Source: Flavobacteriales bacterium
Lineage (GTDB): Bacteria > Bacteroidota > Bacteroidia > M30B66
Direction: 5' to 3'
DNA: 64,000 bases
Assembly: GCA_046294625.1 (NCBI GenBank)
Contig: JBKBKN010000007.1
Coordinates: forward strand, 2,517-66,516
Shown here: piece after piece, positions 15,519 to 31,582 of the stretch
Numbering within the stretch: the stretch's first letter is position 1
How the letters are laid out: every line of letters begins with the position of its first letter
Notes under the pieces: model-generated
Database searches by the model: none
What the model saw: the letters and a program-made list of their open reading frames with translations, nothing else
Told to the model about the DNA's origin: nothing
Made by a program: the position numbers and the translations under genes

Positions 15519-15523
15519 GTTAA

Positions 15524-17965
15524 CTATTGTTTGATAATTCGTGCATGCGATACGCTATTGCCCGAAACAAAGCGAATGATATAAATTCCGGAAGCCAAGT
15601 CGATGAAATTAATTTGATGTTGCTGAAGACCAATGCCATTGAACAATTCTGCTTTCAGTTTTTTGCCCGAAATAGAATAGACTTCAAATAATAAATTCCC
15701 CGGACGGTCAAACTCCACAACCAAATTCAGGAAGTTTGAAACGGGATTGGGATATACTGCTATTTGTGCAATATTATCCAACTCTCCAATGCCAACAGCC
15801 GAAATTGAAACAATTTTGGTGATATCGTCGGTGCCACATAAATTGCTGGATGTAAGCGTAACATTGTAAATGCCGGTTGATGGGAAGGTGAATGATGGAT
15901 TATTAGCTGAGCTTGTTCCCAATCCGGCAAAATCCCATAAAAAGGTATTCGCATTTTGTGTGGTATTGTTAAAGTTAGCTGTAAATCCGCCGGTCTGTAA
16001 ATAATTAAAGTTGGAAATAGGGTTTTGACCAATGGATACACTAATGGGCGGTGAAACGCCATTGCAGCCACCAGGATCTACAGCTGTTACCGTGTAAATC
16101 CCGGGCTGACTAACCGTGATACTTGCTCCGACCTGTCCGTTAGACCATTCATAACTGGAAAATCCGGGAGCGGCGGTCAGGGTAACCGGCTGTCCGCTAC
16201 AAATGGCAGGATTGGGTGGATTAACATTCAAAACTACTGTGTTACCCACCTGCGCATTCACAGGCTCAGATGTGCTTGTGCACCCGTCTGCATCGGTTCC
16301 TGTTACGGTATAATTGCCCGGTTCAGTGACAACGACAGATGAACCTGTTGCACCATTGCTCCACAGGTAATTTACAAATCCCGGAGTAGCGCTAAGCGTT
16401 AAATTTCCATTACAAATAATCACATCACCGGGCGGGGTTATGCTGATTGGCTGCGGGTTACCCGGTGTAACTGTTACGCAATTGGCCACTACGGGGCAAC
16501 CGGAAACATCTGTTCCTTCACCGCAATACTGGCCCGGTTGACTTACTGTAATCGCATTACCTGTTTGCCCATTAGACCATGTAAAATTTGAAAAATTTCC
16601 GGTTACTGAAAGCTGTACTTGACCCGAACATAAACTACCCGAAGCCGGATTCATATTGATGTCGATCTGAATGGCATTGGCTATATTGATAATTACAGCG
16701 GCTGTTTCCACACTTCCACAAGCATTGCTGATCACAGCTCTAAAATGTGTGGTCTGCGTCAAAGGACCTGAAGTAAAAGTAGAATTGGTAGCACCGGGTA
16801 TATTGTTGAAATTAACGCCATTATCCGATTGTTGCCATTGTATATTACCTGATTGACCGGTGATGCTTAGGCTGGTAGTGCCATTGGGACAAACTGTAAG
16901 CGGATTGGCTGTGATTGTACCTGCCACAGGTGGACCAAGTATGGTGAAGTTCACCCCATTATCCGTTCCGGTTACCGCAGGGTTATTACTCACCACCCTA
17001 ATGCGATACTGTGTGCCCGCAGGGGTTCCCATTGGAATGGTCACGGTTATATTTCCTGCTGTGGTAGAAGCATTGGTGCCAATATTTACAGGCGCAGCAA
17101 ATGATCCGGTGGCATCTGATAACTGAGCTGTGAAAACATTGCCGGCATTGAACGTTCCATTGATGGTGTAAGGCACTTGAAATGTTGCGCCCGGGCAATG
17201 TGGGCCGGGAGGAACGGTTCCGGTTGCAATCGTGTTATTCGATAACGGCGATGCCGTGATGCGAACATCGTCAATACTAAACCCCGGATCGCTTGCCGTA
17301 GATGTCGTGTTGTTCACAAAGCGAAAACCAAATCTTAATGTTGCCTGATTGGCAAAAGCAGGCAGGGAAATGGTTTGCTGCTGCCATTGCGAAGTTAAAT
17401 TATACTGAGCTATAGGGGTAGTAATCAGGGTCCATGTTGTCCCGCCATTTGTACTATAATATACTTCACCAAAATTATTCGCGCTGCCATTGCACACCCA
17501 CCAAAAGGTGAAGTTTACATTATCAAAACCCACAGTTGAAACTTGACTTGACATGCAAGCGAAGATGTTTTCAGGGTTTGTACACAAACCATCAGCCGCC
17601 TGAAAACTGGAATTGGTAATGCCCGCACCAATAGCAAGATTACTTGCTGTATGCAGGTACCCACTTGTGGGACCTCCCGTAATTCCGCCTGGTTGTGTGG
17701 GGGTATTGTTGATGGTAAAATTTACAGGTAAGGGTACGCCAAAACAAATTACGTTGCCCGATCCTGAACCACCGGTGTAAGAATTATTTATCACCCAGAT
17801 ATTCGAACCGGTGGCCGTTGAGCTTACATCGGAAGTATTTAAGGTGAAAGTAGATGTTGCTGCATTAAAATCTTCAAAATACAATTCTGTTTGCGCCTGA
17901 TAAGCTTTGGGTATCAAGGTTGAAACTAATAGAAACAATAACCCTAATCTAGTGAAAATATGCAT
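15524..17965 (-). CDS. T9SS type A CTD surface protein with PKD/Ig-like repeats (paralog of 54015..55805)
   Basis: ATG at 17965 gives signal peptide MHIFTRLGLLFLLVSTL (the ORF-track start at 17989 is a GTG). Repeated Ig-like modules (CPG/CSG...TVT). C-terminal VYPNPVSNFLNL...GIYIIRF type A sorting domain. N-terminal about 180 aa domain is shared with 54015..55805. Confidence 0.7.
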   Translation of the reverse strand: MHIFTRLGLLFLLVSTLIPKAYQAQTELYFEDFNAATSTFTLNTSDVSSTATGSNIWVINNSYTGGSGSGNVICFGVPLPVNFTINNTPTQPGGITGGPTSGYLHTASNLAIGAGITNSSFQAADGLCTNPENIFACMSSQVSTVGFDNVNFTFWWVCNGSANNFGEVYYSTNGGTTWTLITTPIAQYNLTSQWQQQTISLPAFANQATLRFGFRFVNNTTSTASDPGFSIDDVRITASPLSNNTIATGTVPPGPHCPGATFQVPYTINGTFNAGNVFTAQLSDATGSFAAPVNIGTNASTTAGNITVTIPMGTPAGTQYRIRVVSNNPAVTGTDNGVNFTILGPPVAGTITANPLTVCPNGTTSLSITGQSGNIQWQQSDNGVNFNNIPGATNSTFTSGPLTQTTHFRAVISNACGSVETAAVIINIANAIQIDINMNPASGSLCSGQVQLSVTGNFSNFTWSNGQTGNAITVSQPGQYCGEGTDVSGCPVVANCVTVTPGNPQPISITPPGDVIICNGNLTLSATPGFVNYLWSNGATGSSVVVTEPGNYTVTGTDADGCTSTSEPVNAQVGNTVVLNVNPPNPAICSGQPVTLTAAPGFSSYEWSNGQVGASITVSQPGIYTVTAVDPGGCNGVSPPISVSIGQNPISNFNYLQTGGFTANFNNTTQNANTFLWDFAGLGTSSANNPSFTFPSTGIYNVTLTSSNLCGTDDITKIVSISAVGIGELDNIAQIAVYPNPVSNFLNLVVEFDRPGNLLFEVYSISGKKLKAELFNGIGLQQHQINFIDLASGIYIIRFVSGNSVSHARIIKQ

Positions 17966-18223
17966 TTCGCTTACATGTTTTATTTGCACAAATTTAATAG
18001 AAAAGCCGACCCTTTAAAAGGCCTGTCTGATTATTTATTTGATTTTGTCATAAATCGAACCAATTCACTCTTAGCTTCTATCTGATAAAATGCCATCTTA
18101 AAGCAATTTAACAATCATGTCATAATCTGATGATTTATGAGATAATTGAAATTTTAATGCCAATTCCGGAAGAAAATCCAATAATAATGCATATCTTGCC
18201 AAACATATTTCGAAAGCATAAAA

Positions 18224-19786
18224 ATGAGCGCAAACGAGAGCCACATCATTGGCCCCAATCACTTTCTCACCATACAAAAACTAGTTAAATTACTAGATAA
18301 TTACCACCTCGAAAAATTCAAGCTACATCTTGAAGACAACAATGCAAACCTACCACTGAAGCTCGTCAGCCTGATTGGCAAAGACCTCATGAGCGACCTG
18401 AGCAGTGATAGAATTTGTTATCTGATATATGGGAACACAGAAAAGAAAACTAAGCAAAGTTTTAGTCAGCTCGCATCTTATACTTTTAAGCTTAGTTCCT
18501 TTTTGAGTAGAAACTTCCCATCTTATCTATTTCACAATATTAACCGTATTCAAATCCTCATCAATGAGGGACAGCTCCAGGAAGCAAATGCTTTGGCGGA
18601 AATGCTCCTAGATATTGCTGATAAAATTGAAGACTTTGTTATCCAGGCTTCTGTTTATAAATTTCTCGCTCATCAAGCGCTGCTCTACAAAGATTATCAT
18701 GGCAACATCAGATATCACCGATTGGCAGATGAAGTACTGAGTTATGAGAAAACCCTGAACTTTATCTATTTGTATTTGAGAAGCAATTTTATCATCAATA
18801 TCAAGGACGACTCCAAGCTTGCCGAACTTGACAAGCATATTGAAGAGTTCGAACACTATTACGATCATCCCAAAAAAACTATTCAAATTGCCAGCCGATA
18901 TGCGGTTATTTTTATCTTATATTTTTATAAGTCGGCTGAATTTAAAACACCGGAAAATCGCGAAAAACTTGAGCTGCTGATGAATGAAATAGAACGAAGC
19001 AGTCAGGTGGTGTTTCCATTTCTCGATGATATACGAATCAAGACAAGCTATTTTATGCTTAACTTCCCGGGTATCAACCTCAACGATAAAGAAGTGAAAA
19101 AGCAATTTAAAGACCTGATCAACTATGGAAGTCAGGCTAACTTTTGGCAGAATTATGTAAATATTCCAGAGCTTCAAACCATTATCGTGAAGGCAACTCA
19201 CTATATTTCAAAATATCACTATCACACATTCAAACAAAATTACGCTGAAATACTAGACCCCAACGACAAAAAAGATATAGAGCAAATTATAGCCCGTTGT
19301 AAAGTTCTTATACAAAAAGATATATGGGAGCCTAATCATGTAAATGATCTGGTATCGTTGCGGATGGTACTTTCTGCCCATCTTTTTTGTCTTGACTCAT
19401 CTCACTATCAAGAAGGCATTAACAATCTGGAGAAGTTAATGATCACTTATCAGCAAGTTGCCTTTTCAGCGAGCATTGATTCTATAATTGCCATGTTAAT
19501 GGTAGGCTATTTCGCTTTAAAGCAATATGAAAAATGTGTTGAAACCTTCAAACGATATATTAAGCTGGCAAGCGGCCGAGTGCTTAATGCCGACAATGAT
19601 GCAACCATACACTTATACTACTATAGTGCACAATGGCTGATGTCGAAAAGAAATCAGTATATCGCTAAAATCAAAGAGCTGTACGACAAAATCAAGGACA
19701 ATGAATCGACTATAGGCTCGCGTAAAATGATCGAATCAGTAGCAGAATACTTTCGATTCCCCGAAGGAACAGGTATAAAATACTGA
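18224..19786 (+). CDS. hypothetical protein (orphan, all-alpha, AT-rich gene)
   Basis: 520-aa ORF with ATG start, rich in K/N/I/Y/F, with no recognisable catalytic or NTPase motifs. It is flanked by an AT-rich 258-bp upstream region and GC content is visibly lower than its neighbours. Confidence 0.5.
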   Translation: MSANESHIIGPNHFLTIQKLVKLLDNYHLEKFKLHLEDNNANLPLKLVSLIGKDLMSDLSSDRICYLIYGNTEKKTKQSFSQLASYTFKLSSFLSRNFPSYLFHNINRIQILINEGQLQEANALAEMLLDIADKIEDFVIQASVYKFLAHQALLYKDYHGNIRYHRLADEVLSYEKTLNFIYLYLRSNFIINIKDDSKLAELDKHIEEFEHYYDHPKKTIQIASRYAVIFILYFYKSAEFKTPENREKLELLMNEIERSSQVVFPFLDDIRIKTSYFMLNFPGINLNDKEVKKQFKDLINYGSQANFWQNYVNIPELQTIIVKATHYISKYHYHTFKQNYAEILDPNDKKDIEQIIARCKVLIQKDIWEPNHVNDLVSLRMVLSAHLFCLDSSHYQEGINNLEKLMITYQQVAFSASIDSIIAMLMVGYFALKQYEKCVETFKRYIKLASGRVLNADNDATIHLYYYSAQWLMSKRNQYIAKIKELYDKIKDNESTIGSRKMIESVAEYFRFPEGTGIKY

Positions 19787-19790
19787 TCAA

Positions 19791-20264
19791 TCAATGCAAC
19801 AGTTTGTCGGCGCAAACCGATGATGCAAAAGCATCAGGTTTAGATTTGAAAATGTAACCCATCCCCTTGGTGTAGCCCATTGCATCGGCATAGGCCTGAT
19901 GAGATTGAAATTTGGGATCAACATTGATATCAGCATGAATCTCTACTTCCACATTATAACTTTTGGTAACTTCTGAGATTTCATATGCTGTTTGAATAGA
20001 TGCATTCACTTCGGCCATCATTCTTTCGCGCATGGCCATCCGCTGTTTTAACTTTTGTTTGTTCACATACATGAACCCCCCATTTCCAATTACAAGAAAT
20101 AAAATCACCGTGACCATATCGATTGTGGTTCCCCGAACCTGCGAGTCTGTACCGATACATATTTTAATGGCTCGATTTTGCTCTCTAAAACTTTTCAAAA
20201 CCTTTTCTACCGCCTCTGATATTGGAGCATCAATCATTGCTCCTGAATATGTTTTCCATGCCAT
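19791..20264 (-). CDS. RNase H-like YkuK/DUF458 family protein
   Basis: 157 aa with an IGTDSQ motif recalled as characteristic of the DUF458 (YkuK) family. Assigned from memory only. Confidence 0.45.
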   Translation of the reverse strand: MAWKTYSGAMIDAPISEAVEKVLKSFREQNRAIKICIGTDSQVRGTTIDMVTVILFLVIGNGGFMYVNKQKLKQRMAMRERMMAEVNASIQTAYEISEVTKSYNVEVEIHADINVDPKFQSHQAYADAMGYTKGMGYIFKSKPDAFASSVCADKLLH

Positions 20265-20523
20265 ACAAGTCTTTTAATTAAGTAAAAAATATGCAGGTTA
20301 ATTTGTTTTGAAATCTACTCCCCAAAAACGGATTCCACTGCTATTTTCAAAACTAAGATAAACAGATTAAGAAATAGACATAAACCGTCGTCTAATTGTA
20401 AACAATTCATTAACAAATCATTGTAATTCCCATTGTGTAATATTCTTCCAGCAAGCAACTTCTTCCATACACAAGTGTTTATAGGCTTTAATTTCATTAG
20501 GTTTGCAGGTCAATTGAAGCTAC

Positions 20524-22080
20524 ATGCGTAAAAAAGTAGATTTTCTGGTGATTGGATCGGGCATTGCCGGTTTGAGTTTTGCACTCAAAATTGCCTCTTA
20601 TGGCAAGGTCATCATTATCACGAAAAGTGATCAGGATGAGTCCAATACCAAGTATGCTCAAGGAGGCATAGCTGCGGTGACTTATGCCCCTGACACTTTT
20701 AAGAAACATGTTCAAGACACCTTAATCGCCGGCGACGGGCTATGTGACGAAAACATTGTACACAAAGTGATCACCGAAGGTCCTGAACGTATTCAGGAGC
20801 TCATCGACTGGGGCACTCAGTTCGACACCAAAGATGATGGTAGTTTTCATCTTGGCAAAGAAGGCGGGCATTCTGAACATCGCATTCTGCATCATAAAGA
20901 TATTACAGGATATGAGATCGAAAGGGCACTCATTGCCCAGATCAAAGCCCACCCAAACATCGAAATTCTTGATCATCATTTTGCTATAGAAGTGATCACA
21001 CAGCACCACCAAGGCATGTATGTCAACAGTAAAACACCGGGCATAAAATGCTATGGAGCGTATGTTTTGGATCTTAAAACAGGCAAAACAGAAGTGATTC
21101 TCTCCCGAATAACCTTGATGGCAAGTGGTGGAATCGGTCAGGTATATGCCGCTACTACCAACCCGACTATTGCCACTGGCGATGGTATTGCTATGGTTTA
21201 TCGCGCCAAAGGAAGAGTGGAAGATATGGAGTTCATTCAGTTTCACCCAACGGCGCTCTATGAGCCCGGGAAACAGCCATCTTTTCTCATTACGGAAGCC
21301 ATGCGAGGTGCAGGCGCGGTCTTACGCAATGTTGATGGCGTGGCTTTTATGTATAAATATGATTCGCGGAAAGAACTTGCTCCCCGCGATATCGTAGCCC
21401 GTGCGATTGACCACGAATTGAAGTCCCGAGGCGATGACTATGTTTTACTGGATTGCAGACATATCAGCGAATCGGAAATTAAGCATCATTTTCCCAATAT
21501 TTATCAGAAGTGCAAAAGCATAGGCATTGAATTGCCCAAAAACATGATTCCCGTAGTACCGGCATGTCATTATTTGTGTGGTGGCATCAAAGTAGATGAG
21601 CACGGTCGAACCAGCATAGAAAATCTTCTTGCAGCAGGCGAATGCGCGCGAACAGGGCTTCATGGAGCCAACCGACTGGCATCTAACTCGCTGCTCGAAG
21701 CCCTATTTATATCACACAGGGCGTTTTTATTTGCAAAAGAAAATTTTAATAACATCCAAATCGAAGAGCAGATCCCTGAATGGAATATCGAAGGAACAGT
21801 GGACAATGAAGAAATGGTACTCATCACACAAAGCAGAAAAGAACTACAATCCATCATGAGCAATTATGTGGGAATTGTGCGAAGCAATGTGAGACTTCAG
21901 CGGGCGCATGACCGACTAATGATTTTAAACCGTGAAACTGAGGAGCTTTATCAGCGCAGCAAGCTCACTCCTGCACTTTGTGAACTACGAAATTTAATAC
22001 TCACCGGCTATCTAATCATCAAAGCGGCGCGATTGAGAAAAGAAAACAAAGGGCTACACTACTCTATCGATTTACTATAA
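20524..22080 (+). CDS. nadB: L-aspartate oxidase
   Basis: FAD-binding N-terminus (DFLVIGSGIAGLSFAL), the succinate dehydrogenase/fumarate reductase flavoprotein fold, and a NadB-typical C-terminus. 518 aa. Confidence 0.9.
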   Translation: MRKKVDFLVIGSGIAGLSFALKIASYGKVIIITKSDQDESNTKYAQGGIAAVTYAPDTFKKHVQDTLIAGDGLCDENIVHKVITEGPERIQELIDWGTQFDTKDDGSFHLGKEGGHSEHRILHHKDITGYEIERALIAQIKAHPNIEILDHHFAIEVITQHHQGMYVNSKTPGIKCYGAYVLDLKTGKTEVILSRITLMASGGIGQVYAATTNPTIATGDGIAMVYRAKGRVEDMEFIQFHPTALYEPGKQPSFLITEAMRGAGAVLRNVDGVAFMYKYDSRKELAPRDIVARAIDHELKSRGDDYVLLDCRHISESEIKHHFPNIYQKCKSIGIELPKNMIPVVPACHYLCGGIKVDEHGRTSIENLLAAGECARTGLHGANRLASNSLLEALFISHRAFLFAKENFNNIQIEEQIPEWNIEGTVDNEEMVLITQSRKELQSIMSNYVGIVRSNVRLQRAHDRLMILNRETEELYQRSKLTPALCELRNLILTGYLIIKAARLRKENKGLHYSIDLL

Positions 22081-22082
22081 AA

Positions 22083-23024
22083 TCAGCGTAATCTCAATAC
22101 GGCGCCTTCCCTGATTTCAACCCCGTCGTTAATTTGGTTGTATTTTCTTAAGTGCTTTTGCTTAATGCCATAACGTTGCGAAATATCGCGAAGCGATTCT
22201 CCTTTTTGCACTTGATGTGTTTTATCTTCGGCCTTTCTGCGTTTGGGTTGTAAGTAAATGATTTCACCGGATTGTATGGGCTGACCTTTCTCCAAATCAT
22301 TGTATTTCACAATTTGCCAGCTCATTACATCGAGCTCTTTTGCCAGACTCTCAGGGGTGTCGCCATCTTTTGCCACCACTGATTTAATGCGATTCCTAAG
22401 ACTTATGGGTCTGACAACTTTGCCTTTAAACTCCAATTCTTTAGGTTCGGTAACAGGTTTTTCCGGACGGGTTTTTATTTGTGTAACAGGTGGAGTTGAT
22501 ATGATTACATCCGGTTTATCAAACCAATGCAATTCATTGTCTTCTATCGTTTTTATTAAGAGCTCTGCATATTTAGGATTTGTTGCATATCCGGCTTTTT
22601 TCAATCCATGCGCCCATGCTTTGTAATCGGTAATGTCGAGCTCAAATAAGAAAGCATAACGCTGATTCTGCTTTAAAAACATGGAGTGGTCTTCATAAGA
22701 ATCCAGCACTTTCTCATACTTTCTGAAACACTCATCTTTAGCATCGTCGTCTTTATGGTAGGTTTTGCCGGTCCAGGTGCTCTTGCACTTAATGCCGAAG
22801 TGATTATTGGCATTTTTTGCCAACTCACTATTTCCTGAGCCTGATTCTAAGATACCCTGCCCCAACTTAATGCTTGCCGGTATCCCATAGCGTTGCATCT
22901 CGAGTATGGCAATGTCCTTATATTGTTCAATATATGCAGAAGTAGAAATCCTGTAATGCTGCTGAGCAGGAATATATGAACAAAGTGGCAACAAAAGCCA
23001 TATCAAGGCAAAGATTCTGAGCAT
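22083..23024 (-). CDS. peptidoglycan hydrolase: glucosaminidase (FlgJ-like) domain plus two LysM domains
   Basis: Signal peptide. Glucosaminidase motif region (ASIKLGQGILESGSG...NNHFGIK). Two C-terminal LysM-like repeats (GDTPESLAKELDVMSWQIVKYNDL; GESLRDISQRYGIKQKHLRKYNQI). Confidence 0.7.
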   Translation of the reverse strand: MLRIFALIWLLLPLCSYIPAQQHYRISTSAYIEQYKDIAILEMQRYGIPASIKLGQGILESGSGNSELAKNANNHFGIKCKSTWTGKTYHKDDDAKDECFRKYEKVLDSYEDHSMFLKQNQRYAFLFELDITDYKAWAHGLKKAGYATNPKYAELLIKTIEDNELHWFDKPDVIISTPPVTQIKTRPEKPVTEPKELEFKGKVVRPISLRNRIKSVVAKDGDTPESLAKELDVMSWQIVKYNDLEKGQPIQSGEIIYLQPKRRKAEDKTHQVQKGESLRDISQRYGIKQKHLRKYNQINDGVEIREGAVLRLR

Positions 23025-23529
23025 TTTACAAAATTAGCCGCAAAGCATGAGATAGTGCTTTTAAAATAACATCTACTTATAAACACATAAACGTTAATTG
23101 TTTGGGTTTATTCGATCATCAAGAACATCAGTAGGTTTTAATGTGAAACAAGCATCATAATTCAACTCCTAAGCCGGAAAGAATTCACCATCCCCACTAT
23201 GTGGTATTGCACATACATTTAACCTGAATTAGATTTGTTAGTGTATTTAATTGAGTCATTGTTGATTGCTAGACAGATTTGCCAACATATCCTATTTTAA
23301 CTCGTTGAATCTTAAACATTGAACATCAAAGGTGTCTTGCGCAACGATTCCAATTTTGTAATCGCGCACAGAATGCTCATTGATAGAAATGAATACCGAT
23401 TGATCAAAAACAGGTTTAATTAGATCACCTAAGCACTGAATGTTTATTTAAAAACACAATGGAAAAAACAATACCCTTACTTTTACCTCATTATCACAAT
23501 CATGCTCTTGTTAATTATGCTATTGGGCT

Positions 23530-24147
23530 TTGGTCCCAGGTTTTTTAAGGCCATTTTTTGAACAAACAAGCCATATTCAGATGGAAAGTTTACCACTGAA
23601 ATTTATCCTGCATGGTAGCGTAATGACCTTATGGTATATACTGCTCGTTGTGCAATCGGCCTTGATAAATGTGCGCAAGGTACAATTGCATATGCGCTTG
23701 GGATGGCTCTTAGCCGGGTTGGCATTATTTGTCGTGATATCTGCCTGGCCTGTGATGATGGGTTTTGCTCCTCGTGTGCTTTCATTGGGTTTTATTGATT
23801 TGGAAAAACCTTCGACTTTGGTACATCAGGCATGGATGTGGTATAATGACCTTATGGCTCTTTTTGCATTTACCATTATGGTGTCCATCGCTATCTGGAA
23901 GCGAAAAAAAGTGGCTTTGCACCGAAGTATGGTACTCATCGCATCAATGATGTTTATGGCTTCTGCTATAGCCCGTATGCTTGAGTGGATGACAAATGGG
24001 TTTTCCTTTATTAGCTTTATCATTACAAGCCTAGCAATCATGTTTGCATATCCCATTGCTTTGGTGGTGATTATTGGATTTGCTACAAGATGTTTCCATA
24101 CTATCCTTCTATCAGATTGGGTATTATGGCTATTGCAATTACCTTGA
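23530..24147 (+). CDS. hypothetical polytopic membrane protein (possibly damaged at 5' end)
   Basis: 4-5 hydrophobic segments. The upstream short ORF MEKTIPLLLPHYHNHALVNYAIGLW in another frame suggests a possible frameshifted N-terminus. Confidence 0.3.
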   Translation: MVPGFLRPFFEQTSHIQMESLPLKFILHGSVMTLWYILLVVQSALINVRKVQLHMRLGWLLAGLALFVVISAWPVMMGFAPRVLSLGFIDLEKPSTLVHQAWMWYNDLMALFAFTIMVSIAIWKRKKVALHRSMVLIASMMFMASAIARMLEWMTNGFSFISFIITSLAIMFAYPIALVVIIGFATRCFHTILLSDWVLWLLQLP

Positions 24148-24545
24148 ACTTTGTGATCCCCAATACAGAATGGGGAATGGCATTTTTTCTACAACACTTG
24201 AAATAATGAACTTAGCATCAATTAATCATAAACTCCGTACTGCGGTTCCGGGCTCTGCCTTCATTGGTATTATTGTCTGCTTCAGCTATTTTGGCTCCAT
24301 TGCTCTTGTGATTCCTGCCTTGGTGTGCACTTTATGCTGGATTGCTCCTGAGTATGCACTTCCTGACAGCAGCCTTTTCTTTGTGTTCTTTTCTCTATCA
24401 GTTCTGGTGCATGATTGGCTGAGTGGAAAGGATTCCCGATTATACCATCATTGTTTTTAAGACCATGCTCAAGGTGCTTATAGCCATTTTGGTGTTTCTA
24501 GAAACAAAGGTCTGGACATCAATATTTTTAAAACACGTAAATGGA

Positions 24546-25092
24546 TTTCAATATGAACGCTATTACACCCTCATACGGATCCGTGCCCGCAGGTCGCAAC
24601 CAGACTATCGACATCCTGCGCGGTGTGGCACTCCTCTTGATTCTGGTTGTAAACTGCGCATTCGATTTCACCGGCTGGGACTGAACCGTTCCCGATGAGC
24701 ATGTTCCAGAAAACACAATGGCGGCGCTCATTCCTTCGGTCAATGGCTTGGTTGACTTCTTCTTGCGGGACAAGGCTCGTGCCCTGTTCGTGCTGATGTT
24801 CGGAGTGTCCTTTGCCCTGCAGCTTGCCCGATCTGAGCAGAGCGGAAGATCCTTCAAACGCATATTCATGAAGCGCATAGCACTGCTTGCTATGATAGGA
24901 TTGGTTCACGGCCACTTGATTTACTACATTAAGATTCTGCGTCTGTAAGCGATGGCCGGATTGCTGATGCTGCTATTGTGGCGTCTGCCGAACAAAGCGC
25001 TTTTACCCTTGGTCGGCTTTCTCACCGTACTAGCACCATTACTGGGCTTCGGAATAAGAAGCTTATTTCTTTCTGAAGATCCCTATGAGTAA
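24546..25092 (+). pseudogene. DUF418/DUF1624 (YeiB-like acyltransferase-3 family) membrane protein remnant, two frameshifts and truncated
   Basis: The N-terminus MNAITPSYGSVPAGRNQTIDILRGVALLLILVVNC is the typical DUF418 start. It continues in frame +1 (24718..24948: FFLRDKARALFVLMFGVSFALQL...) and then in a third frame (24951..25092). Total length is under half a full-length homolog. The segment is about 50+% GC against about 39% around it. Confidence 0.5.
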
Positions 25093-25404
25093 TTCCAAAG
25101 GCTCGTATTAGAAAATAAGTATCAAGAAGCTTTTAAATATTTTGATCAATATAAAGATTTAATACTTGCCACAGATAGGCTTGAAGAGATAAAGTATAAA
25201 GACATTTGGTTCTGTCCGACCTATGTTTCGCAATATGGAGTTTTAAGACTATTTAAAGAGAAAATGGAAGCTGATCCAAGAAATGAATACGTATCCGTTA
25301 TTGAAAGATATCACGGTGGATCTTCTGTTGATTCTTGGTTGGAAATGCCGATGTATAATACATCCAAACCCAACAGTATCCAATTTCATGAAGATTAACT
25401 TTCT

Positions 25405-25827
25405 GTGTTTGAACAGGAAAACTACATAAAAATGTTGATCCAAACAGGAGCGAAAATATTGGCTGGAACAGATTACATCATTCCATGTGTCTATGCAGGA
25501 TTTAGTTTGCAGAAAGAGCTACAAGTTTTTGTCAGGTTGGGAATGACTCCCTTGCAAGCTTTACAAACTGCTACCATCAACCCCGCTCACTTTATGAAAA
25601 ATAACAAAATAGGGGAGGTAAAAGCAGGGAAATTGTCGAATTTATTAGTACTCAATTCCAATCCATTGGAAGATATCCATCATACGCAGGATATTTATGC
25701 GGTATTCTTAATAGGCAGGTATTTAGATCGGGATCATTTGGATGGTATGCTTCAAAAGGCAAAAAACTGGCGAATGCCGAACATATTCACGAATGGTTTG
25801 CACCTCGGATGTAAGCAGATAGTATAG
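25405..25827 (+). pseudogene. C-terminal fragment of an amidohydrolase-family metal-dependent hydrolase
   Basis: 140 aa matching only the C-terminal about third of amidohydrolases (GAKILAGTD...TPLQALQTATINPA...GKLSNLLVLNSNPLEDI). There is no N-terminal TIM-barrel metal-binding part. It is flanked by other start-less ORF fragments (25103..25400, 25830..26040, 26043..26210). Confidence 0.5.
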
Positions 25828-26354
25828 AGCGTACCATACAGACATTTCTGAAAAATCGAGAAAGTATTGAAGAAGAATTTCCCGTGAGATGGAATATGTT
25901 GCTTTCTACGGGGTGGAATTTTTTCAACGAAAGTAAAAAAGAAGAAGCGAAAACAATGGCTGCTCTTATCATAGACTTATATCCTGACTTTGTTTATGCA
26001 CTTGCTTTTGCAAGCGAGAACTTTAAATATTGTGGTGACAAATAACGGGCTAGAACTGCTTTTCAAAAAGCATTGAAGGTTTATACCTGCTATAATGTTT
26101 TAGAACGCTGGATCAAAGAACTGGATGAATCTTTGGCCTTTGGAAAAAAATACAAACAAAAGGAACCGATCTATTTGGCTGCCAGGATTCCATATATGTA
26201 TCATCATCATTGATTGCCCTTAACAAGATGTTTTCATCTTTCTCTCTGGCATTAAAACTTATTTAAAAGCAGGTTGCGATTCGATATCAGTAGCCAAAGA
26301 TATTATTTTCATATTTCGAACAAGGTTATTCTGACAAACAATAATAACCTAGCA

Positions 26355-28322
26355 TTAATTAATCTTAAATTCTGTTCTTCGGTTTTTAGCTCTGCCTTCT
26401 TCTGTATTATTATCTGCTACCGGAAATTTAGCTCCATAACCTTTGGCGGTCATTCTTGATGTTGCAATACCTTTCTTCTGAAGATAGTCCACTACACTTC
26501 TTGCTCTCTGTTCGGACAGTTGCTGATTGCTTTCTGCACTACCTATATTGTCGGTGTGTCCGCTGATCTCCACCCTGATATCCGGATTTTTTTCAAGCAA
26601 AGCTTTCAATCGGTCAAGCTCAATGTAGGATTCGGGAAGTAAGGTAGAAGATGCTGTTTCGAAAAAGATATTGTTCAACACTATACTCTCTCCCTTTTCA
26701 ATCGATTTCAGCTGAATGTCAAGTTCGAAAAACTTAGATGGATCCTGCTTGCCAGTCAAAGTAAAATTCTCTGAATGAAACAGATATCCATCAGCTTTGG
26801 CGTTAAAGGCAAATCTGCCTGATGAGGGTAAGCAGGAAAAATATACACCTGTGATATTGTCTGATGTCCCGCTGATTAAAATCTTGCCAGTTGCGAGGTC
26901 TACGAGTTCAAAAGTGGCGCCAATAGACTGATTGTTTTTTCCTCCTTTGATCATACCTTTGATATATGTTACCGGCAGTGGCATGATAGTTTCCGGTATC
27001 TCAAATGAATATATATCAATGCCTCCTAACCCATCTTTATAATTAGCTGAAATAAACCCGGTTTTGCCATTTGCATTGATAATCAAGTGTCGTTCATCAT
27101 CTTTGGTATTGATTGGATATCCAAGATTAACAGGCTTTCCCCAGGTTGCGTCACCCTGGAGCTCCGACTTAAATAAATCAAACCCACCCAGTCCGGGATG
27201 ACCTTTCGATGAGAAATAAAGTGTTCGTCCATCGGGATGCAAAAAAGGACTATTCTCATCATCTTCGGTGTTGATGGTTGCGCCAAGATTTTCGGCCGGT
27301 AACCACCTGCCCGAGGCATCTCTACGCGACATCCAAAGATCTGCCTTGCCCTGCCCTCCGGGTCTGGTGCTAGTAAAAATCAACATGTTGCCATCAGCAG
27401 AAAGCGTGGGTTGTGTTTCCCAACTTTTGGTGTTAATATTAGGCCCAAGATTTATTGGCTTCTGCCATTTACCACCCACATTTTCAGCTACATATAAATC
27501 GCAGGAACCAAATGAGTCATCTTTTTCGCATGCAGTAAATACAAAAGTTCTGCCATCGGGCGAAATGCTTTGCACGCCTTCATTGTAATGAGTATTTAAG
27601 GGTGGACCCAAGGGTCTAGCTTTTCCCCATTGACCATTATTTAATGTCGATACATAAAAGTCTTCTTCAAATGGGCTATTCGTCTGACTGAATGTGTCTG
27701 CTTTTCTCCTTCTGGTGAAATAGAGATTGTTGTTATCAACCGTCAAAGCCGGGTAGTATTCATCGAACTCTGAATTGACATTGTGCCCAAGGTTATTAGG
27801 ATTAAATGCGACGGGATTGCGAACGGCTTCCGCACCAAATCTGGCGCACTCTAAGCGAAATTTTGCTTTTTTGACAAGCTCCGGCTTTTGATTAGGATAA
27901 CTGAGAAATCGCTCAAGAAAGGGGATAGCTTCTTCATATTCTCCAGCCAGCAAGAGCGTGCCGGCTAGGTTGTTATAATATTGAGGATGCTTATCTGGTT
28001 TAATTTCAAGGGCTATTTTATAGTATTTGACCGCATCATCATACTCTTTTAAATCTGTCAATACATCTCCCAAAAGCATATTGGCTTCATAAAAATTCTT
28101 TTCGGCCTTAATGGCGTTTAACAAATGTTCTTTGGCCTTAGTCGGATTTTTATATTGGTAATTACGCAACCCTTCTTCAAATGCGGCAATCGCTTTTTTA
28201 TTTTTGATGTCATAAGATCCAACTGGCTGCGCAACACAGCTAATGCCAAAGCACATTGTTAGAAACATCAAAACTTTGCGGAGCAACTGCCGCATCATGA
28301 TACGATACTTAAATTGATTCAT
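26355..28322 (-). CDS. OmpA-family protein with N-terminal TPR and PD40/WD40-like beta-propeller repeats
   Basis: Signal peptide, TPR-like helices, several PD40-type repeats (SPDGRT..F, LSADGNMLIFTS, HPDGRTLYFSS). C-terminal OmpA/MotB peptidoglycan-binding domain (ISGHTDNIGS...NQQLSEQRA...NRRTEF). Confidence 0.75.
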   Translation of the reverse strand: MNQFKYRIMMRQLLRKVLMFLTMCFGISCVAQPVGSYDIKNKKAIAAFEEGLRNYQYKNPTKAKEHLLNAIKAEKNFYEANMLLGDVLTDLKEYDDAVKYYKIALEIKPDKHPQYYNNLAGTLLLAGEYEEAIPFLERFLSYPNQKPELVKKAKFRLECARFGAEAVRNPVAFNPNNLGHNVNSEFDEYYPALTVDNNNLYFTRRRKADTFSQTNSPFEEDFYVSTLNNGQWGKARPLGPPLNTHYNEGVQSISPDGRTFVFTACEKDDSFGSCDLYVAENVGGKWQKPINLGPNINTKSWETQPTLSADGNMLIFTSTRPGGQGKADLWMSRRDASGRWLPAENLGATINTEDDENSPFLHPDGRTLYFSSKGHPGLGGFDLFKSELQGDATWGKPVNLGYPINTKDDERHLIINANGKTGFISANYKDGLGGIDIYSFEIPETIMPLPVTYIKGMIKGGKNNQSIGATFELVDLATGKILISGTSDNITGVYFSCLPSSGRFAFNAKADGYLFHSENFTLTGKQDPSKFFELDIQLKSIEKGESIVLNNIFFETASSTLLPESYIELDRLKALLEKNPDIRVEISGHTDNIGSAESNQQLSEQRARSVVDYLQKKGIATSRMTAKGYGAKFPVADNNTEEGRAKNRRTEFKIN

Positions 28323-28393
28323 TACAGCAAGATTAAAACAAAAACGGCTGTCCGATGCAATTCGGTACAGCCGTCTGATTATTTTTTTACAAT

Positions 28394-31300
28394 TTATTTT
28401 CTCACTACGGTGATGTCGCCATTAAAGGTGTCGCCATTGCTTAACTCCAAAATGTAAAAGTAAACTCCATCAGGTTGATCGGTTGCAGCCCAATCGTTTT
28501 GATAAGCGGTGGTTGAAAATACCACATTGCCCCAACGGTTGTAAACAGATAGCTTGGAATTGGGAAATGCTTCTAAACCTGCAATCACAAACAAATCGTT
28601 AAATCCATCACCGTTGGGAGTAAATGAATTAGGAATTGCAAACTCTCCGGCTATTAAATATTGCGCCGATGTTTGATCTGAACAACCATTCTCATCTATT
28701 ACCAAAAGACTCACATTATAAGTTCCCGGAGTGGTAAAGGCAAAAGAAGGATTTTGACTTGCACTCGTGTTAAGATTGCCAAAGTTCCATGACCAGTTGT
28801 TGATTTGCCCATTGTTGGCCTGAGACTGATCTGTGAAGGCAATACTCACACCGGGCAAAGCAGTTGATGCCGGATTCGATGAAAACAGTGCAGTAGGTCC
28901 TGCGGAAATAATCGTGATGGTATCAGATGCTGTACATCCTGCAATAGTGCCTACAGTGATAATGTATGTTCCAGGGCCAACAGTGATGGCTTGCGTGTTA
29001 GCTCCATTCGACCATGAATAATTGAAAAAACCTGCACCGGCATCGATGGTGATGAGCGAATCGCTGCATACAATCTGATCGGCCGGAAGAGTAACCACCG
29101 GATTTTCATTTACAGTGATTCCTGTATTTATCACATCTGATAAACAATTCCCAATATTTCCAACCACGGTGTAGTTGCCGCTATTGCTTTCATCTATAGG
29201 GAAAATATTGATCGAGTTGCCTGTAGCTGCAAATCCTGCAGGCCCGGACCAAGTATACGTTACACCCGGTTGCTGGGCTACAGTGAGCGAAATGGATCCG
29301 CCTTCGCACACCACCGACTGACCCACAATAACCGGATTATCTGGAACTGGTGTAAATGTGATTGATACTGTGTCGCTTCTCGAACAACCAATGTCATTGC
29401 TTACGGTAACAGCAAATACTCCGGATGCAGTTACCGTGAATGTAGAATCTGTTGAATTATCTTGCCATAAGTAAACATTTCCGGGGCCACTATTTGGATT
29501 CAATACCACAGGCGTGTTTCCGCAAATCGTATCGTTTAATCCAAGATAAACTTCGGGAGATGGTTTGATTAAAATATCGATGGAGTCACTGAAGCTTTCG
29601 CAACCAGCCAAGATGTAGAAGCCATAATACCTGCCGGATTGAGCAGCTGTTAAACTAGAGAGATTTAGAGTTTGACCTGTAAATACCGTGTTGTTAGGCC
29701 CAAACCATCGGTATTGTGCGCCTTGCACTGTCGGACTCATAGTGAGCTGTACGTTTTCACCTTCACAAATTTCACTTGGCCCAGTAATAGATGGAGTCTC
29801 AGGTCTGGGGCTGGTTTCTACAATGATGGTATCTCGTGTTTTGCAACCCTGGAAGTCTGTAATTTCTACCCAATAGAGTCCGGCTTCTTCAACGAGAAAT
29901 GAGTTGCCCGTAGAACCATCCTGCCATTCATATAAAAACACTCCTGGAGGCGCTAATAAAAGCGAAGAACCTTCACAAATCGTATCTCTCCCACCGAGAT
30001 TGATTGGTGGCTCATAATAGCTAACATTGATCGTATCGGTTGCGAAACAGTCTGAACCGCTAAAAACCTGAACAAAGTACATTCCCGGTTGGAAAACGGT
30101 AATTCTCTGTGTGGTATCACCTGTGCTCCAGAGATAGCCTGTCTTTCCCGGACCTGCATCTAAGGTTACCGAATCTCCAATACACACCTGACGGTCGGTG
30201 CCAAGGTTCAAATAGCTAAAGTTTGAAAAGTATCCAAAATTAGCGCTAGCGCCGTTAGATCGTTGTGTAGTTCCAAGATGAAAAAGCTCTGTGCTGAAGT
30301 TTTGCAATAAACAAGTAGTTCCGGAAGGAATCTGCTGCGTATTAAATTGAATTCTTGCAAAAACATACTCCCCATTGCTTCCCGGAACTGGCTGGAATGC
30401 TGATGCCGGAACCAAATTAGGGTTTCCGTTTAATACAAAATTTCCTTCAGCTCCTGCTTTGATGGTAATGTTTAGATTAAAAGTATTACCAGAAGTCCTT
30501 ACAAAGCCAACTTGATTAGATCCGGTACATTCCAATGAAGGGATTAAAGCTCCGGCGATTTGATCACCAATCCCTGAAATTTGCCATACATAAATATTTT
30601 TGCTCCCCTCAATAAAAGCTGCATCTGAAGTAAAATCATAAACATATTGCTCTCCGGCATTAAGTGTTACAGCTGGAGTCACTTCTCCATTCACAAAAAT
30701 ATCGGTGTTGTCTTCTGTGGCCAAAATGAAAGCCTTATCATTTAGAGTTAGTGCACTTCGCACAGCAATATGCTTCTTACCGGTATTGTCTAATGAAATT
30801 AATTGATCAGCCGCCAAGTCGGCTCCACCCCATGAGTTGTCATAATCAATCATGTCGTCCTTTATGGTTACTGTGATTGGTTTGGTGGATGTGATTTTAG
30901 TTCCCGGTGCTCGAGAGTTAGGACTAAATCCGGCAGCTTCGCAATAGTATGTCTGCCCTCTATTCAAAGAAATAGTGAAAGGAATTCCTGCGGGATGCCC
31001 CACAAGATCATTGGTGGGTGTGATGGTTACATCTGTAGTGTCGTCGGTAGCCATTACGATGAAGCCTGAACGAGGCGGTGGATTGTATAAACCTTCGCTA
31101 CCGCCTTCTCCATTATCATTTCTCCAAAGTGTTTGAAAAGGAGTGAAGAAAAGAGTGCCATTGGCATTTTTCCCTTTCAAAGTCATAATGTCCGTATTAT
31201 TTGGACTTCTCACTTCGTAATAAGCCGTAATTGGCGCAGAGGAGCGAACCAATAAACCGGTCGTTCTGATTGTGTTGACTGGTCTTGTTTCTATCCTGTC

Positions 31301-31582
31301 CAGAAAATTGGTCAAATTAATTTGTCTTGTGCTATTAGGAGGTATATTCTCCAATATAGGTGCAAAGCTTAAATCAGCCGGCTGAAGGATTACAACGGCA
31401 GCTGGCTCATCTAAAGTAGAGATGACTAGAAAAATAGGTCTGTCGCGGAAAGGACCGCTACCACCGGCAGTAACATCAGGTGCAGCAAACCAGAATTCTG
31501 TATCGATCTGCGCATTTAATTTGACTTGTGTCAAAGCAATCAGCACTGTGACAAGTAAAAGTAATTTCTTCATCATATTCAT
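28394..31582 (-). CDS. large surface protein with PKD/Ig-like repeats and gliding-motility-associated (T9SS type B) C-terminal domain
   Basis: 1062 aa with a signal peptide and many Cys-containing Ig-like modules. The C-terminal NSFTPNGDGFNDLF...SVYNRWGNVVF...GVYFY is the TIGR04131/type B CTD signature. Confidence 0.75.
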   Translation of the reverse strand: MNMMKKLLLLVTVLIALTQVKLNAQIDTEFWFAAPDVTAGGSGPFRDRPIFLVISTLDEPAAVVILQPADLSFAPILENIPPNSTRQINLTNFLDRIETRPVNTIRTTGLLVRSSAPITAYYEVRSPNNTDIMTLKGKNANGTLFFTPFQTLWRNDNGEGGSEGLYNPPPRSGFIVMATDDTTDVTITPTNDLVGHPAGIPFTISLNRGQTYYCEAAGFSPNSRAPGTKITSTKPITVTIKDDMIDYDNSWGGADLAADQLISLDNTGKKHIAVRSALTLNDKAFILATEDNTDIFVNGEVTPAVTLNAGEQYVYDFTSDAAFIEGSKNIYVWQISGIGDQIAGALIPSLECTGSNQVGFVRTSGNTFNLNITIKAGAEGNFVLNGNPNLVPASAFQPVPGSNGEYVFARIQFNTQQIPSGTTCLLQNFSTELFHLGTTQRSNGASANFGYFSNFSYLNLGTDRQVCIGDSVTLDAGPGKTGYLWSTGDTTQRITVFQPGMYFVQVFSGSDCFATDTINVSYYEPPINLGGRDTICEGSSLLLAPPGVFLYEWQDGSTGNSFLVEEAGLYWVEITDFQGCKTRDTIIVETSPRPETPSITGPSEICEGENVQLTMSPTVQGAQYRWFGPNNTVFTGQTLNLSSLTAAQSGRYYGFYILAGCESFSDSIDILIKPSPEVYLGLNDTICGNTPVVLNPNSGPGNVYLWQDNSTDSTFTVTASGVFAVTVSNDIGCSRSDTVSITFTPVPDNPVIVGQSVVCEGGSISLTVAQQPGVTYTWSGPAGFAATGNSINIFPIDESNSGNYTVVGNIGNCLSDVINTGITVNENPVVTLPADQIVCSDSLITIDAGAGFFNYSWSNGANTQAITVGPGTYIITVGTIAGCTASDTITIISAGPTALFSSNPASTALPGVSIAFTDQSQANNGQINNWSWNFGNLNTSASQNPSFAFTTPGTYNVSLLVIDENGCSDQTSAQYLIAGEFAIPNSFTPNGDGFNDLFVIAGLEAFPNSKLSVYNRWGNVVFSTTAYQNDWAATDQPDGVYFYILELSNGDTFNGDITVVRK

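Follow-up and report, generated by a model that had tools for sequence, protein, structure and literature searches.

Prokaryotic genomes can contain clusters of pseudogenes left by horizontally transferred genes that failed or became obsolete (Liu et al. 2004, Genome Biol 5:R64, PMC522871). The DNA analyzed here, a 64-kb stretch from a Flavobacteriales bacterium (hereafter "the window"), holds between a LysM-domain glucosaminidase gene and an OmpA-family gene a zone that resembles such clusters in several respects. Its genes are disabled versions of ones found intact elsewhere, their phyletic distribution is patchy, they are missing at this locus in the nearest relatives, their composition is atypical, and truncation, frameshifts and nonsense codons have built up before deletion. 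The zone differs from the clusters of PMC522871, however, in that several adjacent genes decay jointly as one block, and in that the block holds a scar of a resident gene, which points to assembly at the locus followed by export and not to simple import.

A second known system is the genomic island or integrative element that enters a gene at its 3' end and duplicates that end (attL and attR). As in such islands, the last ~92 nt of the target are repeated around foreign genes, the resident gene is intact, and neighboring genomes hold different cargo at the site. Unlike them, the window harbors neither an integrase or excisionase nor an identical core, and identity between the repeats is 77%. 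Some of the foreign block extends beyond the repeats, and in other genomes the left copy is carried along with the cargo.

The third comparison is with the "peptide/amide-processing" clusters of Cyclobacteriaceae metagenome-assembled genomes (MAGs; loci L081, L162, L163 and L174), which hold beta-lactamase-fold proteins, DUF418, amidohydrolase-TPR and 245-aa membrane proteins. Order and orientation are kept in the window (a gene here called X, then a membrane-protein gene; DUF418, then amidohydrolase), with 85–87% nucleotide identity for the latter pair. Those clusters are larger, mostly intact and of putative function, whereas the window keeps a truncated four-gene stretch with all genes disabled. 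Judged from its sequence, the zone is a case of ordinary gene decay of a known kind: horizontally exchanged cargo decaying in a variable slot.

Layout and limits of the zone

The zone (23025–26354) is the largest ORF-free stretch of the window, the runner-up internal gap being 539 nt. In an ORF scan, open frames stayed below 215 codons throughout 23034–26354 and below 150 codons in 24148–26354. The collapse of coding density reported in the initial annotation is real, and it is found unchanged in a second, independent Logan assembly (L165), which is 100% identical across window positions 12691–32080 (19.4 kb). From left to right, the features are as follows:

22083–23024, minus strand: LysM-domain glucosaminidase gene, 313 aa, intact left flank (Pfam Glucosaminidase, E 2e-38; LysM, E 2.9e-12)
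23025–23249, no strand: host intergenic DNA upstream of the LysM gene, conserved with L166
23250–23447, plus strand: X' remnant, last ~66 codons (tblastn and nucleotide alignment to L171)
23459–24204, plus strand: membrane-protein pseudogene, 249 aa (85% aa identity to P0241)
24209–24400, minus strand: ompA' scar, right end approximate (repeat search; BLASTP against resident OmpA)
24401–24540, plus strand: spacer and DUF418 upstream region (blastn and alignments to L081 and L171)
24541–25052, plus strand: DUF418' remnant, codons 1 to ~171 (Pfam HGSNAT_cat, E 2.6e-6)
25048–25056, plus strand: deletion junction (ends of DUF418 and amidohydrolase homology; breakpoints in intact relatives)
25053–26213, plus strand: amidohydrolase-TPR remnant, codons ~223–610 (homologue P0001, Pfam, L081 alignment)
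26214–26345, no strand: 132 nt separating the stops of amidohydrolase and OmpA, containing the right junction of the block
26355–28322, minus strand: TPR/PD40 beta-propeller/OmpA-domain protein gene, 655 aa, intact right flank (Pfam PD40, OmpA, TPR)

The dead gene block thus listed spans ~23250–26213 and is made of four collinear genes on the plus strand. Its limits were examined against L166 and L168, the two nearest relatives found, which were reached via NadB homologues. The LysM gene has syntenic orthologues in both (63.5% aa identity to that of L168), and the DNA upstream of it shares long identical runs with L166 10088–10320 until the alignment collapses at window ~23250–23254; host homology stops at ~23250, the left limit of the block. 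This upstream DNA (23025–23249) has a fold z-score of 0.17 and no Rfam match. The "about 500 bp" with no ORF in the initial annotation fall into two parts, ~225 nt of host LysM-upstream DNA and ~200 nt of the 3' end of X.

On the right side, the resident OmpA-family protein is 64.6% identical to its syntenic orthologue in L168, and its C-terminus is no less similar. A joint import of block and resident ompA 3' end was ruled out, as identity to the L168 orthologue holds toward the C-terminus. For the 132 nt of the right junction, similarity was found neither to the DNA that follows the amidohydrolase gene in L081, L162 and L163 nor to the DNA that follows ompA in L168, and no locus compared gave a match.

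The source of the window is a MAG, and two indels in the membrane-protein gene adjoin short A or T runs. One might therefore think of a sequencing, assembly or binning artefact, either frameshift errors in genes that are actually intact or a two-organism chimeric contig in which the block does not really belong. Besides the identity of the independent assembly over 19.4 kb, however, the lesions include ten stop-creating base substitutions and a 1.5-kb deletion, which are not homopolymer errors, and both flanks are host genes that are syntenic in L168 on a single contig. Furthermore, the block is at most 81–87% identical to any sequence found and so was not co-assembled from those organisms. 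We regard an artefact as extremely improbable.

Lesions in the four genes

Each lesion was placed against the intact codons of relatives by alignment. Intact homologues were found for all four genes, including those of a Cecembia MAG. Relevant observations can be listed gene by gene:

(i). In relatives, X is a 453–487-aa gene without a Pfam family, located upstream of the membrane gene. Its remnant has lost the 5' ~390 codons (~85% of the gene) and carries four in-frame stops (three TAA, two of them at 23298 and 23313, and one TAG) plus a 3-nt deletion. In tblastn searches it matched L162 4311–4508 (62% aa identity), L171 1–171 (65%), and L081 and L174 (33–36%).

(ii). The membrane gene encodes a multi-pass protein of an uncharacterized family with no Pfam match. 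Compared with L171, the pseudogene has three frameshifts, +1 (G) at 23461, −2 (CC) at ~23546 and −1 (C) at ~24070, and no in-frame stop at all. The N-terminal frameshift suspected initially does exist, and there is one near the C-terminus too. Once the frame is corrected, the protein aligns along its entire length (100%) with intact P0241 (249 aa), at 85% identity, and is 52.6% identical to a Cecembia paralogue.

(iii). A DUF418 remnant is present, as the initial annotation stated, but it is not split over three frames: its pieces (24541–24681, 24685–24945 and 24949–25052) share one frame, cut by two nonsense codons that a codon-level comparison traces to TGG>TGA at 24682 and TAC>TAA at 24946. 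The intact DUF418/HGSNAT-like membrane protein has 407–411 aa. In the window the 3' ~240 codons are deleted, and with them the PF04235 part present in orthologues, so that no full-length multi-pass protein is left. Identity of the remnant to the Cecembia DUF418 gene is 83% (aa) and 86.8% (nt), blastn giving the same 86.8% for window 24479–25052 against L081 6516–7089. The last ~60 nt of the upstream region are conserved in L171 and L081.

(iv). The amidohydrolase-TPR remnant is 73% identical to the 610-aa protein P0001 (99% query coverage, E 5e-179), and 25165–26209 has 84.6% nucleotide identity to L081. It bears TAA at 25090, CAA>TAA at 25396, GAA>TAA at 25812, GAA>TAA at 26043 and a 1-nt deletion at ~25760. 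Pfam detects positions 235–339 of the 345 of Amidohydro_1 (PF01979) only, plus TPR_6. The HAHYH motif of P0001 lies near residue 85; since homology in the window starts at residue ~223, the N-terminal metal-binding His motif is deleted. The absence of the N-terminal part had been recognized from the start. What had been taken for a separate C-terminal third is, however, codons ~223–610 of one gene, and the three "further" start-less fragments (25103–25400, 25830–26040 and 26043–26210) all belong to it as well.

The last two genes meet at a deletion joint. DUF418 homology stops at ~25052–25056 and amidohydrolase homology begins at 25048; the two genes are fused in frame at a TAYGG microhomology, which encodes Tyr-Gly in both. 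Some 1.5–1.6 kb have been lost there: the 3' part of DUF418, the intergenic region, and amidohydrolase codons 1–222.

Altogether, the block has accumulated 10 nonsense codons, 4 frameshifts, the ~1.5-kb internal deletion and the 5' truncation of X. For seven of the 10 nonsense codons an intact relative offers an aligned sense codon, and G/C>A/T changes alone gave rise to every one of these. Substitutions relative to L081 are likewise more often GC>AT (109) than AT>GC (71). Differences from L081 still fall mostly on third codon positions (67/27/126), and non-synonymous changes make up roughly half of the altered codons. The combination is consistent with genes that were once functional and recently came under relaxed selection.

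Could the short ORFs be functional small genes, or the stops be recoded under an alternative genetic code? One stop, TGG>TGA, would be read as Trp under genetic code 4, and the MAG annotation lists several fragments as hypothetical proteins. Against this view, 8 of the 10 premature stops are TAA, and among 41 normal genes of the window TAA ends 26 and TGA 11, with TAG also terminating some. In the amidohydrolase fragment the first 222 residues are missing, and the counterpart DNA in L171 codes for full-length genes. An antisense ORF of 84 codons (24207–24460) was ruled out as a gene because its frame is not open in L171. The chances of functional or recoded ORFs are, in our opinion, minimal. 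At least four "hypothetical protein" calls in the MAG (for instance, the 188-aa ACK4GL_04295) are fragments of the four pseudogenes, and the locus should be annotated as pseudogenes.

Intact relatives and the variable slot

The metagenome contig L171 carries the block in an intact form: positions 1–1757 match window 23277–25055 (81.3% nucleotide identity), positions 3331–3810 match 25103–25583, and its genes encode proteins of 249 aa, 407 aa and, for the amidohydrolase, at least 400 aa. The contig stops before the right flank. In L081, the locus of the Cecembia (Cytophagia) MAG, the DUF418 and amidohydrolase genes are adjacent, with 85–87% nucleotide identity to the window. By alignment to these relatives, the zone is a single collinear block with one internal deletion, so the idea of a patchwork of many unrelated fragments had to be abandoned.

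The mosaic base composition noted initially was borne out by measurement: GC content is 51.6% in the DUF418 part, 36.0% in the amidohydrolase part, 39.9% in the membrane gene and 32.6% in 23025–23459, compared with a window mean of 40.8%. In the Cecembia locus the values are 55.6% for DUF418 and 41.5% for the amidohydrolase gene, and DUF418, at 52–56%, is atypical both for the host (41%) and for the Cecembia locus (43%). Because the mosaic already exists in the intact genes, it does not argue for several separate origins.

The slot between the LysM and OmpA genes has other occupants in the nearest relatives, namely a methyltransferase gene and a GT2 glycosyltransferase gene in L168 and an unrelated membrane-protein gene in L166. 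Neither relative shows any trace of the block. Conversely, the zone was considered as possible remnants of the L168 methyltransferase/GT2 genes or of the L166 membrane gene, and none of these was detected in it. The interval fits a variable or recombination-prone slot, in line with one of the two interpretations offered initially, and it is not an ordinary intergenic region: what it contains are eroded genes of acquired or exchanged origin.

The host is distant from its relatives: NadB is at most 84% identical in aa sequence to that of the nearest ones, and the host flanks have 66–76% nucleotide identity to L166 and L168. No Cecembia was found among the 120 best NadB matches, all of which have at least 66% aa identity; judged by these matches, NadB identity to anything named from outside the host's clade is below 66%. 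Identity between the Cecembia block and the window is thus far above that of host housekeeping or flank genes, which indicates that the block moved horizontally. As no close host relative with the block, intact or decayed, was found, it is from the 92-nt scar alone, described below, that we infer the time and direction of transfer. Searches with the resident OmpA protein gave no record on exact look-up; genome and metagenome scans yielded best matches of 40–48% aa identity without synteny on the side of the zone, and among those matches the CHU_C+OmpA pair was common to L029 only.

Signs of a self-mobile element, the other initial interpretation, were not encountered. Pfam scans of all zone fragments gave no integrase, recombinase or transposase, nor remnants of them, and by gene content the intact blocks of L171 and L081 have no integrase or recombinase inside either. 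There are no terminal inverted repeats at the block ends (those found are short, imperfect and elsewhere), no identical att core in the only flanking direct repeat, the 92-nt ompA 3' end described below, and no tRNA or tmRNA in 20000–30000 (ARAGORN). An Rfam scan by E-value of 22000–27000 returned a chance snoRNA (E 0.39) as sole match. A scan of the zone for sigma-70 promoters and terminators was at chance level, the model being unsuited to Bacteroidota promoters.

The ompA-derived scar and the history of the block

A feature that escaped the initial annotation is the scar of an OmpA 3' end at 24209 to ~24400 (minus strand). A repeat search detected a 92-nt direct repeat, 77% identical, between copy A (24209–24300) and copy B (26346–26437), the latter being the 3' end of the resident ompA including 9 nt past its stop. 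The scar contains the last ~40–60 codons with one frameshift, plus 9 nt past the end of the gene. The longest exact run of the repeat is ~11 nt, and the repeat pair does not bound the whole foreign block. In BLASTP, the conceptual translation of the scar matched the resident OmpA C-terminus with E 4e-12, and that of the L171 scar with E 3e-15; the Pfam OmpA model gave no match to the translation of the scar, which is too short and degenerate for it.

The scar is also found at the equivalent position in L171 and L081. Over the 92 nt, copy B matches the L171 scar at 78 positions and copy A at 71, whereas the best of 158 other OmpA-family 3' ends matches the scar at 56. On this comparison, the scar represents a copy, now diverged, of the resident ompA's own 3' end, and the difference (71–78/92 versus at most 56/92) suggests that the block was assembled beside the resident ompA and then spread. 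In Cecembia, copy A travels with DUF418 and no ompA adjoins it.

The zone is thus very probably a non-functional, decaying remnant of a block with the order X, membrane protein, ompA scar, DUF418 and amidohydrolase-TPR, lodged in the variable LysM-ompA slot. We propose that the ompA'-DUF418 junction was created next to the resident ompA, in the host lineage or a close relative, by an insertion or rearrangement that duplicated the ompA 3' end and left the scar. The block would then have spread to other Bacteroidota. In the host genome, its selective value would have been lost, with inactivation and AT-biased erosion preceding eventual deletion. The copy in the window could be the original resident, or a re-import from a close relative via ompA-anchored recombination. 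A Campbell-type single crossover at the ompA repeat was rejected: it predicts the order ompA'-DUF418-amidohydrolase-X-membrane gene, but in the window X and the membrane gene are found left of copy A, in collinearity with L171.

Other histories were considered. One is a failed one-way import: a block from a Cyclobacteriaceae-like (Cytophagales) donor would have arrived recently, with a scar from the donor genome, landed beside ompA by chance or illegitimate recombination, and decayed without ever being useful. The nearest named intact homologues of DUF418 and amidohydrolase are indeed those of Cecembia and Mongoliitalea MAGs, the gene families are multi-copy in loci of that type, L166 and L168 have no block, and the pattern resembles the "failed horizontal transfers" of PMC522871. 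Moreover, paralogues of X, the membrane protein, DUF418 and amidohydrolase are numerous in Cyclobacteriaceae-type loci, so that a Cyclobacteriaceae origin of the genes themselves would be the more natural assumption, a point that, like the atypical GC content of DUF418, counts against the history proposed above. The scar tells otherwise: it fits the host ompA at 71–78 of 92 positions, including the 9 nt past the stop, while the 158 other 3' ends do not exceed 56, and the block directly adjoins that very ompA, an unlikely coincidence. In addition, the 80 best genome matches include no Cyclobacteriaceae orthologue of the resident ompA, and the Cecembia scar is not beside any ompA. We therefore deem one-way import improbable, albeit worth keeping in mind.

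A site-specific integrative element at the ompA 3' end, supplying a replacement 3' end and with the 92-nt repeats as degenerate attL and attR, would account for the direct repeats that flank DUF418-amidohydrolase, as expected for 3'-end integration, and for the varying slot content among relatives. The bounded element would measure 2.1 kb, or ~3.7 kb before the deletion. This explanation conflicts, however, with the lack of integrase, recombinase, transposase or their remnants in the zone and in the blocks of the intact relatives, and with repeats that are just 77% identical and have no long identical core. It also leaves X' and the membrane gene outside the repeats, even though they are collinear in L171 and equally decayed, and copy A moves with DUF418 in Cecembia with no ompA after it. 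Such an element seems very unlikely.

Scarcely more credible is a dedicated cargo-exchange site, in which modules would enter the ompA 3' end, duplicating or replacing its last ~90 nt with no recognizable integrase in cis; in the same speculative scheme, the displaced 3' end would be carried as a "barcode" to other classes of Bacteroidota. If true, the interval would represent a new kind of mobilizable module that targets gene 3' ends, and embedded scars would trace the donor lineage of transferred genes.

Under the favored history, of block assembly beside ompA followed by export and decay, the mechanism belongs to a well-known class, in which exchanged accessory genes decay within a variable slot, and opens no new question. 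The zone provides a clean, small case of a multi-gene cargo caught in mid-erosion, with one microhomology deletion followed by AT-biased point decay. The ~90-nt scar suggests that DNA built beside a Flavobacteriales-type ompA is now in a Cytophagia genome at 85–87% identity, and that embedded scars of resident genes can point to the direction of transfer between classes.

The gap between the LysM and OmpA genes

The interval between two minus-strand genes is the largest coding gap of the window:

22083-23024, minus strand, LysM-glucosaminidase gene, left flank
26355-28322, minus strand, TPR/PD40/OmpA gene, right flank

Its 3.3 kb lack an open frame of 215 codons or more, and 2.2 kb lack one of 150 codons or more; no other internal gap of the 64-kb window exceeds 539 nt, and the remainder consists of ordinary, densely coding genes. 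The collapse of coding density described in the initial annotation is thus borne out, while its patchwork of fragments gives way to one collinear block. An assembler artefact is ruled out, as the independent Logan assembly L165 (run SRR31360865) is 100% identical to window 12691-32080, including the entire zone. The NadB encoded in the window has a 100% identical counterpart in an NCBI MAG labelled ‘Flavobacteriales bacterium’. Normal genes of the window end in TAA, TGA and TAG alike, and therefore the genetic code is standard.

Searches of the zone for tRNA and tmRNA genes found none, and Rfam gave no meaningful match. Promoter- and terminator-like sites were at chance level in a sigma-70 scan, a method ill-suited to Bacteroidota promoters. 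The 132 nt between the amidohydrolase and ompA stops match nothing among the retrieved loci, and an antisense ORF of 84 codons (24207-24460) is closed in L171, a metagenome contig. Public gene calls for this MAG and in L165 (10891-11457, 11863-11994, 12028-12258 and 12742-13137; window 23530-24147 and 25405-25827) present the fragments as ordinary small proteins, not pseudogenes; examples are ACK4GL_04295, a 188-aa ‘hypothetical protein’, and a 131-aa Amidohydro_1 protein.

Gene content of the block and its lesions

Six-frame translation revealed five plus-strand pieces (24541-24681, 24685-24945, 24949-25089, 25093-25395 and 25399-25824) that share one frame and are separated by single stop codons only. 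Hence, the DUF418 remnant, previously read as split over three frames, lies in a single frame interrupted by lone stops. Translation of 25093-26210 matches full-length amidohydrolase-TPR proteins of 607-617 aa with 98-100% query coverage, the best being P0001 from a Cecembia sp. MAG (73% identity, E 5e-179). Because of this coverage, the amidohydrolase third and the three further start-less fragments, formerly listed as separate items, are one gene (codons ~223-610).

In L081, the Cecembia contig, a 411-aa DUF418 gene lies directly upstream of the amidohydrolase gene, and DNA identity to the window is 86.8% (24479-25052 vs L081 6516-7089) and 84.6% (25165-26209 vs L081 8784-9829). Once three frameshifts are corrected, the membrane ORF encodes 249 aa, 85% identical over its full length to intact P0241. 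The contig that encodes P0241, L171 (3.8 kb), carries in order the 3' end of a gene X, the 249-aa membrane gene, a 320-nt gap, DUF418 (407 aa) and amidohydrolase (at least 400 aa), and its positions 1-1757 align with window 23277-25055 as a single piece (81.3%). The product of gene X, 453-487 aa long, belongs to no Pfam family; the gene is also found upstream of a membrane-gene paralogue in L081 and in two Cyclobacteriaceae-type loci, L162 and L174; X homology in the window begins at ~23250. As the homologues of the fragments are collinear in L171 and L081, the zone is one collinear block. About nine ‘fragments’ are reduced in this way to four genes and one scar, with an exact list of lesions.

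Lesions of the decayed genes, read against intact codons in relatives
X' (23250-23447): all but the final ~66 codons lost; one 3-nt deletion; four stops (TAA for GAG, TAA for CTT, TAG for TGG, TAA for GAA)
Membrane gene: +1 G right after ATG (23461); -2 (CC) at ~23546; -1 (C) at ~24070
DUF418': TGG>TGA at 24682; TAC>TAA at 24946
Amidohydrolase': TAA at 25090; CAA>TAA at 25396; 1-nt deletion at ~25760; GAA>TAA at 25812; GAA>TAA at 26043

DUF418 homology ends at ~25052 and amidohydrolase homology begins at 25048, with ~1.5-1.6 kb gone. The deletion takes away the first 222 residues of the amidohydrolase, among them a His-rich metal site (HAHYH, around residue 85 in P0001), and was probably microhomology-mediated since TAYGG (Tyr-Gly) occurs at both breakpoints in intact relatives. 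At the joint (25048-25056) both genes are in the same frame, so that four point-mutation stops are all that interrupts a single frame from 24541 to 25824. The shared frame is probably a coincidence (a one in three chance), and a fusion protein may have existed transiently.

For seven of the ten nonsense codons an intact relative has an alignable sense codon, and all seven arose by G/C>A/T changes only. Alignable DNA shows 109 GC>AT against 71 AT>GC differences from L081, and the window copies lie 4-5.5 GC points below the Cecembia genes. Differences by codon position (67/27/126) are dominated by the third position, yet roughly half of the codon changes are non-synonymous, which suggests that most divergence accumulated under function and was followed by a shorter neutral phase.

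The GC content of DUF418 is 51.6% in the window (24541-25052) and 55.6% in Cecembia (L081 6578-7813), while the surrounding genomes have 41% and 43%; the gene may be foreign to both lineages. Elsewhere, the amidohydrolase of a Mongoliitalea MAG (L163 8001-9835) is annotated as a 502-aa protein and a separate 95-aa ORF, with DNA homology to the window continuous to 9831, and the membrane-gene homologue of L174 (6649-7398) is broken into 146 and 92 aa. Accessory genes of the block seem to be pseudogenised repeatedly across genomes.

A scar of the neighbouring ompA gene

A repeat search detected a 92-nt direct repeat of 77% identity. Copy B (26346-26437) comprises the last 27 codons of the resident OmpA-family gene and 9 downstream nt; copy A (24209-24300) reads GAKIAEADNNTNEGRARNRSTEFMIN and a stop on the minus strand. 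If one frameshift is allowed, this scar resembles the resident protein along 40-60 codons (BLASTP E 4e-12 and 3e-15). The scar occupies an equal position upstream of DUF418 in L171, and is shortened in L081.

Nucleotide matches among scars and ompA 3' ends
Copy B vs L171 scar: 78/92
Copy A vs L171 scar: 75/92
Copy A vs copy B: 71/92
L081 scar vs copy B: 60/87
Syntenic orthologue of the relative L168 vs copy B: 58/92
Best of 158 other OmpA-family 3' ends vs copy B: 56/92

The resident ompA is ~65% identical to the L168 orthologue throughout, and its 3' end shows no anomaly. Together with the closeness of the match, this argues for the ompA of this lineage as the source of the scar and against a generic OmpA C-terminus. 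Straightforward one-way import from Cyclobacteriaceae would fit the abundance there of the block's gene families but leaves the specific match to the adjoining resident gene unexplained. Alternatively, the 92-nt repeats might bound a site-specific element. This is unlikely, as no recombinase was found, the repeats share only 77% identity, the block extends beyond them to X' and the membrane gene, and a Campbell-type crossover at the repeat would give a gene order other than the observed one.

In L081 (6516-6530), ~190 nt between scar and DUF418 that are present in the window and L171 are absent. In the window they are flanked by an 11-nt direct repeat (24282-24292, AGCTATTTTGG; 24482-24492, AGCCATTTTGG), and their loss in the Cecembia lineage looks like a repeat-mediated deletion; the Cecembia scar would therefore be derived, not ancestral. 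Three imperfect direct repeats with 162-nt spacing inside the OmpA-family gene (27094-27453) are PD40 beta-propeller repeats, an ordinary internal protein repeat.

The locus in relatives and the history of the block

The nearest relatives of the host, located via NadB, hold other genes between LysM and OmpA. L168 (NadB 78% identical) shares the gene order of both flanks, with a methyltransferase and a GT2 glycosyltransferase in between; L166 (NadB 84% identical) is collinear with the window to ~23250 and continues with an unrelated plus-strand membrane-protein gene. No trace of these genes was found in the window. The interval thus appears to be a variable slot. Host flanks are 66-76% identical in nucleotides to both relatives, whereas the block reaches 81-87% with L171 and Cecembia (class Cytophagia), and Cecembia NadB is not among the 120 best matches, all at least 66%. 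These values indicate that the block has travelled horizontally among distantly related Bacteroidota.

Upstream of the LysM-glucosaminidase gene, ~230 nt (23025-23254 vs L166 10088-10322) contain long identical runs, for example CTACTTATAAACACAT.AACGTTAATTG.TTGGGTTTATTCGATCAT, while neighbouring genes are 71-76% identical in nucleotides. This stretch, probably a leader or regulatory region, has no Rfam match and its fold is not unusual (z-score 0.17); L168 has only 81 nt at that position. L029 (6216-11971), a MAG labelled ‘Chitinophaga pinensis’, encodes, like the window, a CHU_C-type giant protein and OmpA pair (49% and 45% aa identity), followed downstream of OmpA by a different gene for a 400-aa membrane protein. 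This fits a synteny breakpoint on the ompA 3' side across Bacteroidota.

The block is dead and collinear, has horizontal relatives, sits in a variable slot and bears a scar akin to the neighbouring gene. We infer that the 3' end of ompA was duplicated, and the ompA'-DUF418 junction formed, when DNA was inserted or rearranged next to that gene in this lineage, and that the block, scar included, then spread to other Bacteroidota. Here the block would have lost its value; a deletion, indels and substitutions biased toward AT would have disabled it, with removal still pending. The window copy may be the original resident or a re-import from a close relative; a re-import could have been anchored by ompA homology on the right and an illegitimate joint inside X (~23250) on the left.

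Decay of horizontally exchanged accessory genes is a known kind of prokaryotic gene decay (PMC522871), and the zone, a decaying block of such genes, is a specific instance of it. The scar adds a hint on where the block was assembled.
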